This document shows positions 5,557 through 62,551 of a DNA stretch of 64,000 bases, piece by piece. The notes below the pieces were generated by a model that saw only the letters and a program-made list of their open reading frames with translations, did not search any database and was not told the origin of the DNA. Source of the stretch: Candidatus Latescibacterota bacterium (GTDB lineage Bacteria; Latescibacterota; UBA2968); NCBI GenBank assembly GCA_965214925.1, contig OZ244028.1, forward strand, positions 3,592,205-3,656,204, given 5' to 3'. The translations under genes were made by a program, and so were the position numbers. Position 1 is the stretch's first letter. Every line of letters starts with the position of its first letter.

Positions 5557-7887
5557 TCAATTTCGCCATCTATGTCGGTCGCGGGCGCGCCCGCGCGCCC
5601 GCGGCGCGAAGTTGGTCAAGATCGCGTTGAAATTATTGTCGCCAAACGCGGTGCGCGTGGCGTCGCCACAGACCATCGCCATGTGTATCTCGAGTTCGTT
5701 TGCCAAATCCGCCAAGTTCTCGTAAAGGTATGCCGCCGTGTCCTTGAATGTGGTGAACACCAGCATTTTGCGGTTGGTCTTGCCATCCTCGTCCATCGTC
5801 GGATTTCGCGCCTTGTCCCGAATGCGCGCCTTAATCGCTTCGAGCTTGCCGTCCCGCTCGGGCGTGATCTCGGCGACCTTTTTCCACACCGCGGTCAGAA
5901 CTTTTTTGTCGTTGAGCAAATCCTTCTTCCAGCGGGGCAAATCCAACTCGCGCAGGTGATAGGGCGTGCGCGCCCGATTGATCAGAAACTCCTCGTCGTC
6001 CTCGTCGTCATTCGGGAGGATGTCGGCTTGTTCGTCCAACAGCAGGTTTTGCCCATAGCGGTCTATCTTTTTTAACAGATCGTCAATTTTGCCGACCGTG
6101 CGCCCGAGGGTTTCCGTCAGCGCGTGCGCGGAACTCTCCAAGCGTTTGAGAAAGTTCGTCCGCATCATGCCGATGAGGAATCGCTCGCGGTCCTCCTGAT
6201 TGAACCGCAGTTGCTTTTTTTCATTCGCCAACCGCTTTTTTGCCTCTTCGCCGGTGACATAGCCAGATGGCCGGTAAATGGACAGGGCGAATTGCCCGAT
6301 TTGCTCGGACAAATCCCGATAGGAAAGTTCGCGCGTGACGTCGGTCAGCGGATAGCCATTTTCCGGCGGCAACTGCGTGGGAAAATCGCCGATGCGGTGC
6401 ATTTCCTCGGCATAGAACGTCTCGATCTGTCGCCGCGAGCGCGCGATGGAAACGCCGCCCAACAACAACAAAAAATCAGCCCCCAGCGAATCCAACAACT
6501 CGCCCTTGTCTTTTTTTTTCGCGTTGGACTCCCAGGCCTTGAACTCCTTTTGCGCCTGTCCGAGCAAGGTGCCGATATGTCCAATGCCCAGACTTTCCCG
6601 GAACACATCCTCGCGCTTTTCGGTCATCAGATAAATCTGATTGCGGAGGTCGATGAGCGAGGTATTGACCGGCGTCGCGGAAAGCATCAGCACCTTGGTT
6701 TGCGTGCCTTCTTTGATCACTTCCTCCAACAGCCGCGAGTAGCGGCTGTGGCGAATTTTGCCATCATCGTCCAATCGGGGCTTGGTATCATTGCGGAAGT
6801 TGTGCGATTCGTCAATGACCACCACATCGAGATTGCGCCAGTTGAAATTTGCCAGATCAATATCGCCGGCTCGTCCCCTGCTGCGAGACAAGTCCGTGTG
6901 CGACAACAACGTGTAGCCAAAGCGATCCGCGGCAAAAGGATTGTGGGCATGGGCGTTATACACCGGATATAGCGCCCAGTTTTCGCGCAGCTTTTTGGGG
7001 CACAAGACCAGCACGCGCTCGTTTCGCAACTCAAAGAACTTGATCACCGCCAACGCCGTGTAGGTCTTTCCCAAGCCCACGCTGTCGGCCAAGATGCAGC
7101 CGTTGTGCCGCAACAAACGGGCGATCGCGCTTTTGGCGCCGTCTTTCTGAAAGCCGTACAGCGCGTTCCAAATCCGCGTGTCGTACAGGTGCGTATCCTC
7201 GAGTTGGCTTTCGCCCTTTTGTCTGTCTTCTATATCTGCCCGAAACAACTCGTAGAGCGTTTTGTAATAGATAAATTCCGGCGCGCAGTCTTTGCCGATT
7301 CGCGCCAGCGCGGCCAACACCTCCTTTTTGACATCCACAGTCAACGCGCGGTCTGCCCACAGGTCGTCAAACCACGCGCGCAGTTCCGCGCAGATTTCCG
7401 CGTCGCAGGTCGCCAGGTTGATTTCCATATTTGCGCGCGTCCCCCCGCCCAAGCCGCTGCGCGTGAAGTTGGAACTGCCGACCACCGCTGCGCCGCGGTT
7501 GGGCGATTCCGCGAGATACATCTTGCCATGCAGAAAATTGGATTTGCCGACAGAGCGGATTTTGACCCCTTTGCCGCGCACCCATGCGGCGCATTGCCGC
7601 GCCACATATTTCTGCTGCAACGCGCGATTCGGCGAGAGTCTGCCTTCGGTCAGGTCAAAAAATTTCCGCGCGCGCTCGCCGGGGTCCAACTCGCCAACCG
7701 ATGCCGGATCTCCAAAGAGAAACCGCACATCCCCGACGCGGGCGAGCGCGTCCTTCAGCAATTCATAGCCGTAAATGGTAAAATACGCGGAAACCAGCCT
7801 GAATACCTTCGCGGAGGGCAAATGTCCGCGCAGATAATCCGCGACCCGCTCGCGGCGATTGTCCAGAATGTGTTCGTATTTTTGCAT
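5557..7887 (-). CDS. PLD-family nuclease domain fused to an SNF2 helicase N-terminal ATPase domain; the upstream half of the frameshifted gene
   Basis: HKD motif HGKMYL...GSSNFT. Walker A GLGKTYT, DEAH-like VVIDESHNFRN and motif III LMLSATPV. Start MQKYEHIL at 7887 follows a GGGGGAG ribosome-binding site. The ORF terminates inside the GC repeat at 5581-5608. Confidence 0.75.
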   Translation of the reverse strand: MQKYEHILDNRRERVADYLRGHLPSAKVFRLVSAYFTIYGYELLKDALARVGDVRFLFGDPASVGELDPGERARKFFDLTEGRLSPNRALQQKYVARQCAAWVRGKGVKIRSVGKSNFLHGKMYLAESPNRGAAVVGSSNFTRSGLGGGTRANMEINLATCDAEICAELRAWFDDLWADRALTVDVKKEVLAALARIGKDCAPEFIYYKTLYELFRADIEDRQKGESQLEDTHLYDTRIWNALYGFQKDGAKSAIARLLRHNGCILADSVGLGKTYTALAVIKFFELRNERVLVLCPKKLRENWALYPVYNAHAHNPFAADRFGYTLLSHTDLSRSRGRAGDIDLANFNWRNLDVVVIDESHNFRNDTKPRLDDDGKIRHSRYSRLLEEVIKEGTQTKVLMLSATPVNTSLIDLRNQIYLMTEKREDVFRESLGIGHIGTLLGQAQKEFKAWESNAKKKDKGELLDSLGADFLLLLGGVSIARSRRQIETFYAEEMHRIGDFPTQLPPENGYPLTDVTRELSYRDLSEQIGQFALSIYRPSGYVTGEEAKKRLANEKKQLRFNQEDRERFLIGMMRTNFLKRLESSAHALTETLGRTVGKIDDLLKKIDRYGQNLLLDEQADILPNDDEDDEEFLINRARTPYHLRELDLPRWKKDLLNDKKVLTAVWKKVAEITPERDGKLEAIKARIRDKARNPTMDEDGKTNRKMLVFTTFKDTAAYLYENLADLANELEIHMAMVCGDATRTAFGDNNFNAILTNFAPRARGRARDRHRWRN

Positions 7888-7922
7888 CTTGCTCTCCCCC
7901 CTCAATGAGCAGTGTTTTGCCC

Positions 7923-31873: not shown

Positions 31874-31904
31874 GAGCTATCAGCCTTCAGCTTTCAGCCC
31901 CGCC
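31874..31904. repeat. Dispersed element, copy C: GAGCTATCAG-CCTTCAG-CTTTCAG-CCCCGCC
   Basis: Lies immediately upstream of the ribosome-binding site of the Gfo/Idh/MocA gene on the minus strand. Confidence 0.6.
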
Positions 31905-32457
31905 TTTCCGCCCCAATCAGCGTAAAAGGTGCTTGCTTTGCTGACCGCCGACCACTTTCATGCGCCAACAGAAATTTTTTCTTTTTTATTCCCCCGGCAT
32001 ATCCCGTCAAATCGCCAGACGCGCCAATCACGCGGTGGCACGGCACCACAATCGCCACCGGATTGTTGCCATTGGCCGCGCCCACTGCTTGCGCTGCCCC
32101 AACGCTACCCAACGCGCGCGCGATATCGCCATAAGTTCGCGTCTCTCCAAAGGGAATTTTCAGCAACAATTTCCATACCCGCTTCTGGAAATCCGTTCCG
32201 TGCAAATCCAATGGCAAATCAAAAATTTTCAGCGTCCCGTCAAAATATATTGTCAGTTGCTCAACCGCCGCATCGATCACCGCATGCGCCACTGCCCGAG
32301 GCAAACCTATCTTCGCCCGCGCTGCTCGTTCACCCTCAAACGCAATTGCCCGCACCCCATCATCCGACGCCAACACGGTCAACGGCCCCAATGGACTCGC
32401 CACCTCGCCCCAAACCGTCTCCCCTGGCAATTTTTTCACACGCTGTAAGTCAAACAT
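31894..32457 (-). CDS. ogt: Methylated-DNA-[protein]-cysteine S-methyltransferase
   Basis: IVVPCHRVIG active site (PCHR) and HTH region. Probable start MFDLQR. Confidence 0.8.
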   Translation of the reverse strand: MFDLQRVKKLPGETVWGEVASPLGPLTVLASDDGVRAIAFEGERAARAKIGLPRAVAHAVIDAAVEQLTIYFDGTLKIFDLPLDLHGTDFQKRVWKLLLKIPFGETRTYGDIARALGSVGAAQAVGAANGNNPVAIVVPCHRVIGASGDLTGYAGGIKKKKFLLAHESGRRSAKQAPFTLIGAERRG

Positions 32458-32663
32458 GTCGCGCCTCAATTTCTCGATACATGGTCTTATATTGGGCAAC
32501 CCCTGTGGTTGCCCCTACGGGGTTGGGGGATTGGGGGACTTTCTCACTTCTCACTTCTTGAGGTCTCTCAAACCCGCGAACGCAGGACCTCGGCATACAA
32601 GTGTCGGCAGAACTGACGTTGTGATCGGTGCGCGCCACTAGGACAATGTCAATTCTTCTTGGA

Positions 32664-33113
32664 TCACCGCTTCATTATTAGGGCAACTTTTTTGCGGGGC
32701 TTGGAAATCGCAATATCCGGTTTTAAGGCAATCCGCGTATGGTCTATATGCTCAATTTTAGATGGCATGTGGTAAAATTCTTTTAAGTGGTTCCAATCTT
32801 TGTCTCTCAAAGTTGCCAATTGATCCAAGTAAAAACTTACCCAATAAACACCCAATTTCGATCTAAAATTTTCTTGCAAAAGTTTATTTTTTGCAATTTC
32901 AACGTATTTGTTGTCCAATTCAAAACCCATAAATTTTCTGCCCAAACGCTTGGCGGCCAACGCGGTTGTGCCGGTTCCGCTAACCGGATCGAGAATAATA
33001 TCGCCTTCATCTGAGGACATTAAAATGATTCTTTCCAATAGGTGCATGGGCAACTGACACGGATGTTTATCTCTGTATTTATTGTGTTTTACCCTGTGAA
33101 TATCTGTCCACAC
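32664..33113 (-). CDS. Beta-class DNA N6-adenine/N4-cytosine methyltransferase, C-terminal half (motif I); downstream part of a split gene
   Basis: HPCQLP, then DPVSGTGTTALAAKRLGRKFMGFEL (FxGxG motif I). In its own frame the upstream sequence reads LLHPFGPLVSDVWTDI. Confidence 0.7.
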   Translation of the reverse strand: MWTDIHRVKHNKYRDKHPCQLPMHLLERIILMSSDEGDIILDPVSGTGTTALAAKRLGRKFMGFELDNKYVEIAKNKLLQENFRSKLGVYWVSFYLDQLATLRDKDWNHLKEFYHMPSKIEHIDHTRIALKPDIAISKPRKKVALIMKR

Positions 33114-33616
33114 ATCGGAAACAAGGGGTCCGAATGGATGTAATAATTTTTTTTTTCGTAATCTTTTGCCAATAGACCTGATTTTCGCGTGCGTTCGTGG
33201 GGATAGCGAATTTCATAAAATTTCAATTGCTGAATGTCTTTTTTGGCAGAAAACAAAATGCCATAATGCGAAGGCTGCAATGTTTTTCCCATTGGAGCCG
33301 TAGGCGCGTCCCAACTTATCCAGTGCTTAAAATCGGCAATTTGATTGAGGTATGCCGTATAAAATGTGAGCCATTTCGGTATGTTGTGCAAAAAAATACT
33401 GCCCGTTGGTTTGGTGATGCGAACCATTTCAGTTATCCAAAGTTCGCACCAATCCAAATATTCTCGAAGTTTCAGGCGGTCTTTGTAACTGTTGTAAGAT
33501 TTTTTGAGATTAAAAGGGGGGTCGGCAAATGTGACATCCACCGAATGATCTGGCATCGTTTTGAGCAGTTCTAAACAATCCCCTTGAATAATATTGTTTA
33601 TGTATCGTTCAATCAT
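33089..33616 (-). CDS. Beta-class DNA methyltransferase, N-terminal half (motif IV DPPF); upstream part of a split gene
   Basis: IIQGDCLELLKTMPDHSVDVTFADPPFN. The ORF ends 20 codons after an A10 tract (T10 on the plus strand at 33147-33156). The start could be 33616 or 33712. Confidence 0.65.
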   Translation of the reverse strand: MIERYINNIIQGDCLELLKTMPDHSVDVTFADPPFNLKKSYNSYKDRLKLREYLDWCELWITEMVRITKPTGSIFLHNIPKWLTFYTAYLNQIADFKHWISWDAPTAPMGKTLQPSHYGILFSAKKDIQQLKFYEIRYPHERTRKSGLLAKDYEKKNYYIHSDPLFPMCGQIFTG

Positions 33617-33638
33617 ACACTTAAGAAATTGTTGAACA

Positions 33639-36164
33639 TCACGCCCCGGCAGTTTTGCCGAACACGCTGACGAACAACAAAAAATCGCTGAAATTGACCT
33701 GACCATCGTCATCTAAATCAAAGCGCGCGTCGGGATTATCCGCGCCATAAGCGGAAACAAACAGGAGAAAATCGCCAAAGTCGATCTTTCCACTGCCATC
33801 GAAATCCGCCTGATTGGCCACCTCGCGCAAGGGCAAAAACACAGCCGGCTGAGGGCGTATCGCCACCCCCCGAGGCCCATCGCTCAAACGCAGCGTTCTC
33901 AGAATCTGAAGCGACTCGGCATCAAAAACGACCAGATCATCCGAATCCTGATTGGTCACATACACCCGCGATCCGTCACGCGACACGAACAACTCGCGCG
34001 TTTCCTCGCCGCCCGGCAAAACATCTACGCGATGGGTGACGCGGTTTTGAGCCACATCGATGACGAGCAATTGCGCGTTCACGCGGTCTGTTGCGTATAG
34101 CCGAGAGCCATCGGGCGATAAGGCCATGCGAAAAATCCCGGAATCGTCTGTGCGAATCGTTGCAATTACAGACAACGCATCGGTATCCACCACCGAAATA
34201 CCGCCATCGCCATTCTCATCAAAGTCGCCCCCCGACACGTACAACCGCTTTCCATCGGCAGACAAAACCAGTGATCGCGGGTCGGCAATCACATTGACGC
34301 GCGCGATCGTCGCCCTGATTGAGGGGTCAATGACCAGAACCTGATCGCCTTCGATATCGGTGACATAAACGCGCGACCCGTCTAGGCTCACCGCCACGCC
34401 ATAAGGCCCGCGCTCTGCAACGGGCACCCGAATGCGCGCCGCGCGCGCGGTCAAGGTCGCCACCTCGAGGATCGAAATACTCCGATCCCGTGAATTGGTG
34501 ACATAAACCAAACGCCCATCCGCGCTCAAAGCGAGATCCAACGGCGCATTGCCGACCTCGAGAATCGCAGCCACCCGATGCGTGGCGGTCTCGATCGCCA
34601 TGACCCGATTTTCAGATGTACTGCTGCCCGATCCCGCATTGGCGACAAAGATATAGCGTTCATCAGGCGTCATCAACACACTCAGGGGCGTCTCTCCCGT
34701 GGGGATGCGCGCCACCTCTTTGCCCGGGCCCATATCGATAACGGCCAGTGCATTTGCCTCTCGCAGTGCAACAAAGGCCACGGGCGCGCCGGAAAGTGCC
34801 AGTACCTCAAACCGGAGCATGGGCAATTCCAGGGGTGGCAGCGGCGTCTCATTGCCATCGCCGTCGCGAGCGATCAACCGATATTCAATGATCGTTCCCA
34901 CGCGCTGTCCATCAATTTCAGCGGTAAAAACATCGTCACCTGCGCGCGCGGTTCGCGCCACCTGCACACTGCCGCCATTGATGCGATAGTGCAATTCAAC
35001 AGCCGCGACTCCCTCGTTGTCCGTCACAGTTGCCGAAAAGCGATAGGGGCCATTGGGATCCGGGGTATTGGTTGGAAAATTGGGTCGCTGAATAAAGGGC
35101 GCGCCGGGAGCAGAAGGCCCGAGCGCGAAGTCGATATTGGCGATGACTTGATCGATTTCAACGCGCACGATTTGGGCATTGGCCTGCCGAAACGCATTGT
35201 TGAAATACTCTATGTCGAAGTTCTCATCAAATGATGTCTGAAAAATACCGCCAAAATTCTCGGGCGAAATCGTGCGATGGTGGGGTTCAATAGCCATGTG
35301 ATAATCGCCCGGGGGCAAACCGAGGATTTCATACCGCCCATCGCTGCTGCTCCCCGTCTGCGCGCCAGTCGAACCCGACAGCGCGCTTGCAACAAAGACC
35401 TGAGTGCCCGCGCGATAAGCCACCACATGCACGCCAAACACGGGGCGCTCGGCCCCCAAGACCTGCCCACTCACACCGCCTGTTAGCTCTTCTACCGGGT
35501 AGATCGCCGTGATACCCGCGCGATCGTCGGGTTGAAGTGAACGCTCCTCCTGCGGTGCTTCGGGCGTATGATAGGGATACATGGTCGGGCGCACCTCGGG
35601 GTCGCCCACGAGCGGGGAGTGATCCAACCCCAACAGATGCCCGATCTCATGCGTCATCACGCCCTCGAGATCGACGTGATTGCGCGGGGTGTTATCCTCA
35701 TTGACCGAAAAGTCAAAATCTCGACCATTAAAAATAATATCCACATCCGTGATATACCCGTCATCGTTCCAGTTGATCCGCGCAATAGCAATGACGCCAG
35801 TACCCTCGGGCGCGTTCAAAATTTGTCCGGTCTCATCGTAAATAATCACATTGCGCCGATCGGAAGGCGAGGCGGGAATTTGCGTCGTCCCTTCGTATTC
35901 AAATGCAATAAATGCCGACGGCACCTCGCCCCAGCGATTAAACCCGCGTCGGGCAATACGCACCACATCGGCCTCGGCAAAGGGAAAACTCCCGGCATTG
36001 ACCACAAAGGGAATCCCAGCTCCGGCCCGAGAAGCGGACCAGCCAATGTTCACAATGCGCCCGCGCGTATTGCGATGGGTTTGAATGACATACCCTTCTG
36101 CCCCCATCCATAGGACGAGCACGAGGCCAACAACACAAATTTTTTTCACAGCATCAATCCTCAT
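33639..36164 (-). CDS. Secreted multidomain protein: matrixin-like Zn-metalloprotease + YVTN-type beta-propeller repeats + C-terminal dockerin-like Ca-binding repeats
   Basis: HEIGHLLGLDHS (HExxHxxGxxH); repeated RVYVTN/RLVYVTN/RLYATD blades; DFDGSGKIDFGDF...DLDDDGQVNFSDF dockerin pair. Confidence 0.7.
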   Translation of the reverse strand: MRIDAVKKICVVGLVLVLWMGAEGYVIQTHRNTRGRIVNIGWSASRAGAGIPFVVNAGSFPFAEADVVRIARRGFNRWGEVPSAFIAFEYEGTTQIPASPSDRRNVIIYDETGQILNAPEGTGVIAIARINWNDDGYITDVDIIFNGRDFDFSVNEDNTPRNHVDLEGVMTHEIGHLLGLDHSPLVGDPEVRPTMYPYHTPEAPQEERSLQPDDRAGITAIYPVEELTGGVSGQVLGAERPVFGVHVVAYRAGTQVFVASALSGSTGAQTGSSSDGRYEILGLPPGDYHMAIEPHHRTISPENFGGIFQTSFDENFDIEYFNNAFRQANAQIVRVEIDQVIANIDFALGPSAPGAPFIQRPNFPTNTPDPNGPYRFSATVTDNEGVAAVELHYRINGGSVQVARTARAGDDVFTAEIDGQRVGTIIEYRLIARDGDGNETPLPPLELPMLRFEVLALSGAPVAFVALREANALAVIDMGPGKEVARIPTGETPLSVLMTPDERYIFVANAGSGSSTSENRVMAIETATHRVAAILEVGNAPLDLALSADGRLVYVTNSRDRSISILEVATLTARAARIRVPVAERGPYGVAVSLDGSRVYVTDIEGDQVLVIDPSIRATIARVNVIADPRSLVLSADGKRLYVSGGDFDENGDGGISVVDTDALSVIATIRTDDSGIFRMALSPDGSRLYATDRVNAQLLVIDVAQNRVTHRVDVLPGGEETRELFVSRDGSRVYVTNQDSDDLVVFDAESLQILRTLRLSDGPRGVAIRPQPAVFLPLREVANQADFDGSGKIDFGDFLLFVSAYGADNPDARFDLDDDGQVNFSDFLLFVSVFGKTAGA

Positions 36165-36537
36165 TTTTGAGCACGGGTTCTGATCCCATTGCATCTATCA
36201 TCCAGACCTCGGCCTTGCCATCGCGATCAAAATCCGCTTCGGCATACGCCCTGAAACCATCTTCTGAAACGGTCACCCGATAGCGAAAGCGCCCGGGCGC
36301 GCGGTCGAGTTGTAAAATACGGCCGTTTTTCTCTCGATCAATAGGCAGATAAGTTCTGTTTTCTGCCCAATATGCGTGTTCCAAAACCGCAATGCGCTGC
36401 AACATAATGCGGGCGCGTTCTCGCTCTGCATCTTCGGGCGTGCGATCTGTAAAGCGATAAATCAACACCGCGCACAGCACCGCGCATAGCGCAAGCACAA
36501 TTCCCGCTCGATACAACTGGTCGCGATAGTTCCGCAT
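36154..36537 (-). CDS. Hypothetical membrane-anchored protein
   Basis: Single N-terminal transmembrane helix, no recognisable motif. ORF only. Confidence 0.3.
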   Translation of the reverse strand: MRNYRDQLYRAGIVLALCAVLCAVLIYRFTDRTPEDAERERARIMLQRIAVLEHAYWAENRTYLPIDREKNGRILQLDRAPGRFRYRVTVSEDGFRAYAEADFDRDGKAEVWMIDAMGSEPVLKNED

Positions 36538-38234
36538 TACGGCCTCTCTTCATGCCACCAGATTTTGGGTTCCAACCTTCCGGTCTCCGTCTCCCATCTC
36601 GCGCGCACCTCTGCGGTATCGGCATGCGCGATCAGAGGCTCGGCGGGCAAAAACGGATGGATTTGTCCAGACATCCACTGTGCATTGCCATCGCGATCCA
36701 AAAAGCCGGAAATGCGATAGGTGCCCGGAATTAAATTGGTCAACGCAAACGTCGTATCCCGCAAGACCTGTTCGACAAAAAAGTCATGCGTCATGCCCCG
36801 TGCCCAAATCACCACATTGGAAGAAGACGTCGTTCCAGAAACGCGCCCCAAAGCCGCGGTGTCCACCACTGAAAAGACAAATGCAATTGGTTCAGAGAGG
36901 CCATTGCCGCCAATGTCAAAAAGGCCATTCGGATTTCCAATGAGTCGAATTGTCTCACCACTTGCCCATGGATCATCCGCCACAAACACGAGATGGTTGG
37001 GTGCGGCCCATTCAAAATGCCCCTGGGGAACAACAGTCGAATCCGAGGCTATCCACAATTCGGACACCTCATCCAAACGCATGGCATCGGAAAAAAAAAT
37101 GCGAACCAGAGCCGTTGGCAAAACATGCGCGGCATTCTCCGCCGGCGCAATCGCCAGCACCTCGGGCGCGCGTCGGTCTCGCGTGGCATCGCCCCGCACG
37201 GTTGCATCAATGGTATCGCGATTGCCCCACTGATCTGCAACATCGATGAGAACCGCGTAGTCTGCCCTCCGAGTTTGCGGTTCGGTGATCAAACCCATCC
37301 CACTCGCGTCTGTGGGATCCTGATACATGTCCAACACAGACAGGTCGGGGATTTGCACGGACAAAATCCGCACGGGTTCGTCAAATCGCATCAGGATATG
37401 CTGTTGATCGGGTGTGCGCGCGGCAACGAGCACAGGGGCTGACGTGTCGCGCACCGCGAGCTTGAGATCGCCCAGGCGAACGCGATCCGCATCCGCGAGC
37501 ACCACGTCGCCGGGCGGAAGGGCCAGAAAATCCCCGGGCGAATACGTGCGGTCTGCGTTCTGATCGCCAAAAGCAAATACCCGATAGTGCCCAGGGCCCA
37601 ACCGCTTCAAGACAAAATGGCCCGTTTCGTCGGGTTGTGTCACATAAGCGGGGCGATCTCGCCCCGGGTCGGGCGCTGCCAGCAGCGAGAGATCATATCC
37701 CCAAACGAAAATTTGCCCGCTCCGCGCATCAGACGCCAGAACGCGGCCGCTGAGTTCCCCTCGATTTAAGCGATCCCCTGTGGCAAATCCAAAACTGTGA
37801 GAAGACCGCATGCGGTTGCGCCATTCATCGGCACTTTCCTGCCCCACCGTGACCAAATACGTTCGGTCGGCTTGCAGGCCATCGGGCAATCGGATTTCTA
37901 ATATTTCTCCACGCCATCGAAAATCGGGTTCCTCAGATCCCTGTGGCGATATAAACACTGCATGCTCGACCGATTTGCGATCCATCGGCTCGGAAAATCG
38001 AATGCGAATGGAGGTGTCCAATCCCACCCGTAGCGAACCATCCGCGGGCATTGTGGCAATCACCCTGGGCGGTGTTTCATCGGGTGGGCCGCCCGGCGGT
38101 GGCATCTGCCGCGCGCAGGCCACAAAAAAACAGAGAACGAAAAAAAAACAGATTCCCCCAACCCTTTGTTCTGAAAAGAATACCAAAATGACATCACCGC
38201 GTTTATAGGTTGGATTCGGCTGCGTCAGGTCCAC
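36537..38234 (-). CDS. Secreted protein with bacterial Ig-like (SbsA/Big-type) domains
   Basis: Signal/transmembrane N-terminus and repeated Ig-like blocks (RIRFSEPMDRKSVEHAV...). Confidence 0.4.
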   Translation of the reverse strand: MDLTQPNPTYKRGDVILVFFSEQRVGGICFFFVLCFFVACARQMPPPGGPPDETPPRVIATMPADGSLRVGLDTSIRIRFSEPMDRKSVEHAVFISPQGSEEPDFRWRGEILEIRLPDGLQADRTYLVTVGQESADEWRNRMRSSHSFGFATGDRLNRGELSGRVLASDARSGQIFVWGYDLSLLAAPDPGRDRPAYVTQPDETGHFVLKRLGPGHYRVFAFGDQNADRTYSPGDFLALPPGDVVLADADRVRLGDLKLAVRDTSAPVLVAARTPDQQHILMRFDEPVRILSVQIPDLSVLDMYQDPTDASGMGLITEPQTRRADYAVLIDVADQWGNRDTIDATVRGDATRDRRAPEVLAIAPAENAAHVLPTALVRIFFSDAMRLDEVSELWIASDSTVVPQGHFEWAAPNHLVFVADDPWASGETIRLIGNPNGLFDIGGNGLSEPIAFVFSVVDTAALGRVSGTTSSSNVVIWARGMTHDFFVEQVLRDTTFALTNLIPGTYRISGFLDRDGNAQWMSGQIHPFLPAEPLIAHADTAEVRARWETETGRLEPKIWWHEERP

Positions 38235-62183: not shown

Positions 62184-62551
62184 GGGGGCGACATGGTTTC
62201 GACGGGGGTGGAGCGGTGATGGCCGCGTGTCGAGGTGCCCGATTCCCTCGTAAAACAATTGGGAAAAAACGCAAGTGCGGACGATAACACGTACGCAATG
62301 GCTGCCTAACCAACCGTTACGCAGTCCGTTCTGCTAGGCCTCGCCTGCGTGGTCTGGACAGAGCGCCGACGAGAGCAGGCTGGTTCGGGGGTTTCCGCTC
62401 GAGGCCCTCCGGGCGAAATAAAATCGGGCTGGCATCTCAGCGCCCCTGTCTGTTGGGGCGCGGGGTGTGAGATTCCATAAATAGACTACACACGTAGACG
62501 CCATTGTCAAACTGCTTTCGGACGCGGGTTCGATTCCCGCCGCCTCCACCA
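62184..62551 (+). ncRNA. ssrA: tmRNA (SsrA)
   Basis: 5' GGGGGCGACAUGGUUUCGACGGG and 3' T-arm GGUUCGAUUCCCGCCGCCUCCACCA form a tRNA-Ala-like acceptor. Internal tag frame ..ASADDNTYAMAA ends at a TAA stop. Confidence 0.85.

Follow-up and report, generated by a model that had tools for sequence, protein, structure and literature searches.

A split beta-class DNA methyltransferase gene in a Latescibacterota genome is probably a recently inactivated orphan and not an on/off switch

Orphan methyltransferases remain after nuclease loss in the evolution of restriction-modification systems. Other methyltransferase genes are interrupted at a homopolymer and switched, as in phasevarions with Type III mod genes and in the Type II and IIG genes of Helicobacter pylori; such switching is documented there, tracts of more than 8 bp are considered likely to switch, and repair of the frame reactivates some of the interrupted genes, but not all (PMC3936762). 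Interrupted genes can also be rescued while the DNA stays unchanged. Runs of more than seven A are known transcriptional slippage sites, with the A9 run of Thermus dnaX as a cited case, and the heptamer A_AAA_AAA is known for −1 frameshifting (PMC3711429). In Citrobacter rodentium an A11 run rescues the interrupted tssM gene (PMC4256274). Here, we analyze a DNA methyltransferase gene that is split at an A10 run in a 64-kb stretch of a Candidatus Latescibacterota genome (contig OZ244028.1), which we call the window. An earlier, sequence-only reading had proposed that the gene is phase-variable. Comparison with relatives points to a different history: the gene is probably a recently inactivated orphan methyltransferase of a Type II restriction-modification system, broken by two frame-breaking deletions, and not a switch.

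The split gene and its two lesions

The sequence-only reading had described a split beta-class methyltransferase with motif IV and motif I on separate open reading frames (ORFs). This description holds; the ORFs are out of frame with each other and share 25 nt. Our comparison set consisted of 82 related loci from genomes and assemblies (L numbers), together with a protein alignment with 18 homologues. The parts of the gene are the following.

32638..33616, minus strand: methyltransferase gene remnant in its full extent, ATG at 33616, ancestral-frame stop TAG at 32638-32640; blastn against L003, L005 and L004 spans 33616/33617 to 32638/32642
33089..33616, minus strand: N-terminal ORF (ORF1), 156 authentic residues including motif IV FADPPFN, followed out of frame by 19 further residues, NYYIHSDPLFPMCGQIFTG
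32664..33113, minus strand: C-terminal ORF (ORF2) with SDVW, HPCQLP and motif I LDPVSGTGTT, terminating at a premature TGA made by the tail frameshift
33147..33156, minus strand: A10 run of the coding strand, A_AAA_AAA in the ORF1 frame, coding for the conserved Lys-Lys(-Lys)
33156..33160, minus strand: net 4-nt deficit, window TAC-G-A10 against TAY-GGN-GGN-AAR-AAR in relatives, Gly-Gly codons gone in DNA and protein alignments
32688..32693, minus strand: second lesion, an A6 run one nucleotide short of the A7 context in relatives (−1 indel; 3'-end alignment)

The protein starts at the ATG at 33616 (the MIERY... start within ORF 33089-33616) and opens with MIERYINNIIQGDC; initiation at the alternative ATG at 33712 would only make the N-terminal ORF overlap the upstream gene at its 3' end. 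From FADPPFN the N-terminal half runs through the conserved block HNIPKWLT...ADFKHWISWDAPTAPMGK to GAT TAC G AAAAAAAAAA TTA TTA CAT. Past the A10 run the incoming frame reads NYYIHSDPLFPMCGQIFTG and reaches a premature stop at 33089, about 19 codons after the run. As assembled, the N-terminal product is a 175-aa fragment lacking the AdoMet-binding half. In the −1 frame, which stays open between the tract and 32664, the sequence codes for LLHPFGPLVSDVWTDIHRVKHNKYRDKHPCQLP...LDPVSGTGTT. No uninterrupted frame covers both halves, the breaks lying at 33147-33160 and 32688-32693. Adding one A at the tract (A11) or removing two (A8) joins both frames. The run (plus-strand T10 at 33147-33156) had also been named as the longest homopolymer of the window, and it is, followed by six 9-nt runs (6511, 23462, 37091, 38140, 50491 and 53131). 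Its GC content of 39.6% sets the gene apart as a 1-kb islet from a window of 54.5% GC.

With the tract repaired to A11, the translation matches Pfam PF01555 (N6_N4_Mtase) with an E-value of 7.9e-47 and 160.5 bits (cut-off 26.7) over positions 1-220 of the 221 in the profile; thousands of intact proteins from many phyla share 70-85% identity with it across 94-100% of its length. Structures of M.MboIIA (1G60), CcrM (6PBD) and M.RsrI (1EG2) are matched in the PDB with E-values of 5e-28 to 1e-14. FADPPFN at residues 30-36 precedes LDPVSGTGTT at residues 209-218, which is the beta-class motif order. Judged from domain and motifs, the window gene is assigned as a beta-class N6/N4 DNA methyltransferase of the Type II restriction-modification kind, and it is probably N6-adenine specific. 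The repaired protein scores under the cut-offs of the NCBIfam equivalogs for YhdJ-like PRK11524 and for CcrM and hence belongs to a distinct subfamily with no assigned specificity. It resembles Type II beta-class methyltransferases in the full-length PF01555 match after repair and in the DPPF motif IV placed before motif I. In contrast to its relatives, which adjoin a nuclease gene, the window copy has no nuclease and carries two frameshifts.

The junction at the A10 run differs from that of the relatives in a way that a change of tract length does not describe. In the alignment with the 18 homologues the motif KDY-GG-KK-x-L-HPFG has both glycines and both lysines invariant, and KDYGGKK stands in frame at 82 of 82 related loci. 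The A11-repaired window protein reads KDY-E-KKK-LLHPFG, with one residue fewer and without Gly-Gly. On the DNA level, L001 reads TAC GGC GGC AAA AAA AAG CTG TTA, L002 reads TAC GGG GGA AAA AAA AGA CTC TTA, with GGA as the second Gly codon, and L004 reads TAT GGC GGC AAA AAA AAA CTG TTA; L001 and L004 have KKK. The window reads TAC G A10 TTA TTA and is shorter by 4 nt, not by 1 nt, between TAC and TTA. This deficit, which holds against every in-frame relative, had been missed by the sequence-only reading, as had the second frameshift near the 3' end. Removal of GGNG from TAC-GGN-GGA-AAA-AAA-AAA-TTA gives exactly TAC-G-A10-TTA. Thus, the simplest history is a single 4-nt deletion beside an in-frame run that was already 10 nt long, the length expected of an in-frame GGA-AAA-AAA-AAA (G-K-K-K). 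The A10 run would then be unchanged coding sequence, made of unaltered Lys-Lys-Lys codons and the last base of a Gly codon, and not an expanded switch tract. Arriving at an in-frame A11 from the same ancestor requires deletion of a codon and a G-to-A change in the invariant motif, and then either a slip or a miscall.

The sequence-only reading had suggested a search for different tract lengths in related genomes. Among the 82 relatives the A-run is 2-9 nt long, most commonly 6, and the differences come through substitution, by codon choice alone, with the frame always kept; L004 and L208, two genomes of one species, have the same A9 tract. No exact match is on record for the 175-aa ORF1 product, the 398-aa neighbour or P0239, and a clade-specific DNA pattern gave 0 matches in metagenome contigs. 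A looser pattern of the shortened junction gave 120 matches, nearly all by chance, with L180 as the sole family member. A protein search with the N-terminal half returned no near-identical fragment, a weak negative given that its candidate set missed known 85% relatives.

The second lesion lies in the tail. DNA homology to L003 and L005 runs 26 nt beyond the TGA stop of the window gene, and alignment of the 3' ends places a 1-nt gap at the coding-strand A6 run, with the last ~12 codons shifted and the protein 8 residues shorter. With A11 alone the tail ends in ...KPRKKVALIMKR and a stop, not in the ...QEELTLS and stop of the relatives. One nucleotide added at the A6 run turns the ending ...ISKPRKKVALIMKR into ...ISKPRxKSCPNNEAVIQEELTLS, with the stop at 32638-32640 as in L003 and L005, and the tail-corrected ending ...NNEAVIQEELTLS is that of these two relatives. 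Hence, A11 alone does not regenerate the ancestral protein. The earlier claim that A10 to A11 rejoins the halves stands as far as the frames fuse into 317 aa with a full PF01555 domain; it does not hold for the tail, which is still shifted, or for the missing Gly-Gly. The A11-repaired copy departs at five of 118 columns that are at least 97% conserved (Y123S, K141E, a deleted Gly, G154E and F212V), a deviation count that is the highest among 82 sequences (mean 0.93, maximum 4). F212V replaces a motif I Phe that is found in at least 97% of 81 relatives.

An orphan without its nuclease

At 70 of the 82 family loci a nuclease candidate of ~320 aa, with weak Pfam matches to RE_BanI/DpnII, lies directly upstream of the ~326-aa methyltransferase, and at 61 it is full length. 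From this gene order, the family is normally a putative compact two-gene Type II restriction-modification module. NCBIfam gave no name to the nuclease partner, and the recognition sequence of the module is without assignment. A tblastn search with the L003 nuclease candidate found no match in the 64-kb window and none in L004 or L005, and no cognate restriction endonuclease adjoins the window gene. The description of the gene as an orphan methyltransferase with ogt as neighbour is therefore accurate: ogt lies downstream and there is no restriction-enzyme neighbour. L004, an uncultured Latescibacteria chromosome, aligns continuously with the window from 37587 to 32642 (~5 kb, 79% identity); it has the same upstream gene, an intact 333-aa methyltransferase at the same place and no nuclease. 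L208 belongs to the same species as L004 (99.8% identity) and carries the same methyltransferase. In three further related species (L209-L212) the methyltransferase is absent at this locus.

Pairwise and three-taxon estimates of dN/dS bear on the age of the break. On the window branch the ratio is ~0.05 upstream and 0.13 downstream of the tract, indistinguishable from the intact L004 branch, and dS against L004 is 0.94 for the methyltransferase and 0.56 for the flanking gene, which is of the same order. The low dN/dS, together with a divergence like that of the flanking gene, argues for purifying selection during most of the history of the orphan at this place and for recent lesions. A long-standing pseudogene is rejected, since the window branch evolves like its intact sister branch. 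The long purifying selection hints at a former host function.

The two lesions, the synteny, the missing nuclease and the intact orthologue are observations, from which we infer that activity was lost and in which order the events took place. The ancestor would have been the two-gene module with the nuclease directly upstream of the beta-class methyltransferase. In a Latescibacteria lineage the methyltransferase alone would have stood between host genes, long under purifying selection. The first lesion may have been the 4-nt deletion at the 5' edge of the ancestral in-frame GGA-AAA-AAA-AAA, by which Gly-Gly was lost and the frame shifted, and a separate 1-nt deletion at the A-run near the 3' end would be the second. 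Such a course resembles decaying restriction-modification systems and orphan methyltransferases, in that the nuclease is gone and the methyltransferase was retained and then disrupted, and in that sister copies elsewhere have frameshifts in nuclease and methyltransferase. It differs in that the orphan was apparently long under purifying selection before it broke. The locus would show, at a dated stage, how a restriction-modification system decays in an uncultured phylum: the nuclease lost, the orphan kept under selection and then broken.

Explanations for the frame break

We consider recent inactivation to be probable, and several points weigh against it. The gene has no substitution-level decay, in line with the dN/dS of the intact branch, so it is either only recently dead or somehow still expressed. 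The tail is variable across the wider family, as seen from the aligned sequences, and the tail lesion may be harmless or dispensable. Slippage of an A10 run back into frame can occur at appreciable rates, and it is physically plausible that some full-length protein is made or that part of the population reverts. Furthermore, both lesions touch A-runs, as long-read homopolymer miscalls also do, and the window comes from a single 4.7-Mb contig with no second genome of the species on record.

The last points would suit an error of the assembly, in which the true tract is A11, the consensus was under-called and the gene is intact save for one residue that was really lost in frame. A-runs are the site of both deletions, a single 4.7-Mb contig is typical of long-read metagenome assemblies, and dN/dS is low. 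However, a miscall accounts for 1 nt and not for 4, so that a real 3-nt deletion and a substitution in the invariant motif are still needed, and a run of A6 is short for a consensus error. The rest of the window argues in the same direction. Its intact long ORFs hold four 9-nt runs and one 8-nt run, four of these in Pfam-matched proteins, among which a UDP-glucose dehydrogenase is matched over all its domains. Outside the methyltransferase 63 A/T runs of at least 6 nt lie undisrupted inside long open frames, whereas in the methyltransferase two of six runs coincide with indels; a hand calculation gives a hypergeometric probability of ~0.006 for that split, which is rough since runs in open frames are non-disruptive by construction. 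An assembly that is generally prone to homopolymer errors is not supported, given the 63 undisrupted runs and the 9-nt runs in proteins with complete domains, and we regard an under-called A11 at this gene as unlikely. Two host genes served as controls of assembly quality: a 782-aa PLD/SNF2-helicase protein (5557-7905, minus strand) has an in-frame T9 run (6511), and a Big_5 protein (36537-38234, minus strand) has two in-frame A9 runs (37091 and 38140).

The sequence-only reading saw the classic architecture of a phase-variable mod gene. Slippage at the A10 run would toggle the gene between OFF (A10) and ON (A11 or A8), and the ON protein would be active with E-K-K-K in place of G-G-K-K-K. The gene is indeed like the phasevarions and other homopolymer-switched methyltransferases in that its ORF is interrupted at a slippable homopolymer, a hypermutable simple repeat, and in that a 1-nt change restores most of the frame. 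Reversible slippage at the longest homopolymer of the window is physically plausible, and an orphan kept at its locus under purifying selection, with no excess of non-synonymous change in the downstream half, is compatible with a switch. In contrast to phasevarions, the OFF state here is the loss of 4 nt and of an invariant Gly-Gly and not a tract length, and the tract codes for conserved residues in frame in all relatives. ON and OFF alleles that differ in repeat-unit number are not seen: the runs of the relatives differ by substitutions, no conserved frame transition occurs in the 82 loci, and L004 and L208, the two genomes of the sister species, agree in A9 with no length polymorphism. A change of the tract to A11 does not restore the complete protein, as the second frameshift persists after tract repair. 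Motif I carries F212V. In H. pylori, two of six frameshift-repaired methyltransferases remained inactive (PMC3936762). The setting differs as well, the window being from an environmental Latescibacteria genome and not from a host-adapted pathogen. Given the history that an in-frame A11 demands, reversible switching appears improbable, and the phase-variable architecture is not supported. A homopolymer at the frame break of a methyltransferase resembles a phase switch and calls for caution, as here the relatives show ordinary lysine codons with a 4-nt deletion adjoining them.

Alternatively, the DNA might stay as it is and a constitutive low level of E-K-K-K protein might arise by polymerase slippage (+1 A) or by −1 ribosomal frameshifting on A_AAA_AAA. 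The shift from ORF1 to ORF2 is −1, equal to one additional nucleotide in the mRNA, and A_AAA_AAA stands in the correct phase (GAA-AAA-AAA-AAT). As in the slippage-rescued tssM and dnaX, there is an A-run, here A10 at ~19 codons before the premature stop, and one additional A gives the frame needed; the dN/dS downstream of the tract is low. In contrast to slippage-rescued genes, the interruption is not conserved in orthologues. All 82 relatives are in frame, so that the conservation of the transition demanded in PMC3711429 is lacking, and split copies elsewhere have different lesions. The 77 nt downstream fold no better than shuffled sequence (MFE −10.2 kcal/mol, z = +0.78), with no frameshift-stimulating RNA structure standing out in that stretch, and there is no obvious AGGAGG upstream. 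Transcriptional slippage requires no stimulator. The product would lack Gly-Gly and keep its shifted tail in any case, and we give rescue by slippage about the same small chance as switching. If true, slippage-rescued or switchable expression would exemplify epigenetic heterogeneity beyond host-adapted pathogens.

Broken copies elsewhere in the family, found with the N-terminal half as query, bear on the choice between decay and a maintained switch. L204, L205 and L206 come from three independent samples and share the allele GGA-A9-GGC, two nucleotides longer than the in-frame A7. In these loci (L204 2029-4049, L205 3-1161, L206 1-1121) the nuclease is split into 243 + 77 aa and the methyltransferase into 165 + 191 aa at GGA-A9-GGC; the allele is a fixed, doubly broken restriction-modification module. 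L203 has A4 in place of A5, a second frameshift near residue 205 and no nuclease, and L207 has a −1 indel right after the run. The metagenome contig L180 (Ga0180298_1012678) has one frameshift at an A8 run and a compensating one at GGGGAAAAAA, with 25 codons in between (minus strand, ~1040-1250); these may be sequencing errors or real. Across this widespread family, breaks seem to recur at the GGNGGAAAAAA stretch. Because the break at the G-run/A-run recurs in copies that have other damage, decay at a mutational hotspot fits better than a maintained switch. There is a slim chance, slighter still than those given above, that the break point is a tolerated hotspot, where the window copy, L204-L206, L207 and L203 are split at the Gly-Gly-Lys-Lys loop and yet keep some activity. 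At those same slim odds, slippage of polymerase or ribosome on the A-run could supply an orphan methyltransferase at a low and noisy dose, or the two halves could function as polypeptides of their own; either route is compatible with the low dN/dS of the downstream half.

Neighbouring genes and further observations

The two genes that flank the methyltransferase are the following.

33639..36194, minus strand: upstream host gene for an 851-aa M10 peptidase / beta-propeller / EF-hand protein (Pfam), the synteny anchor with L004 and L208 and separate from the methyltransferase
31894..32499, minus strand: ogt, O6-methylguanine-DNA methyltransferase (Pfam PF01035/PF02870), downstream of the methyltransferase

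Only 22 nt separate the start of the methyltransferase from the stop of the upstream gene. The cluster of Big_5, a small ORF and the M10/beta-propeller gene (window 33639-38234) is kept in several Latescibacteria genomes (L004, L208 and L209-L212). The methyltransferase follows it in two species only, that of the window and that of L004 and L208, and the genes downstream of the insertion point vary. L004 and L208 have a BatD gene at the downstream position where the window has ogt. The adjacency to ogt is thus coincidental and specific to the window, and a functional link between the two is rejected. Between ogt and the methyltransferase remnant, the spacer holds a perfect 8-bp hairpin, GGGCAACC-CCTGT-GGTTGCCC (32494-32514), which has no T-run and occurs once in the window. 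A scan for promoters and terminators stayed at background level.

The methyltransferase alleles of L003 (4001-4981, a Limisphaerales chromosome), L005 (4001-4981, a Latescibacterota chromosome) and L002 (13-993, an unrelated run assembly) have pairwise dS values of just 0.02-0.05, which points to very recent transfer between phyla. The nuclease gene is present in L003 and absent in L005. Elsewhere in the window, a tmRNA gene (62184-62551, plus strand; Rfam RF00023, 197 bits) encodes the tag peptide ADDNTYAMAA.

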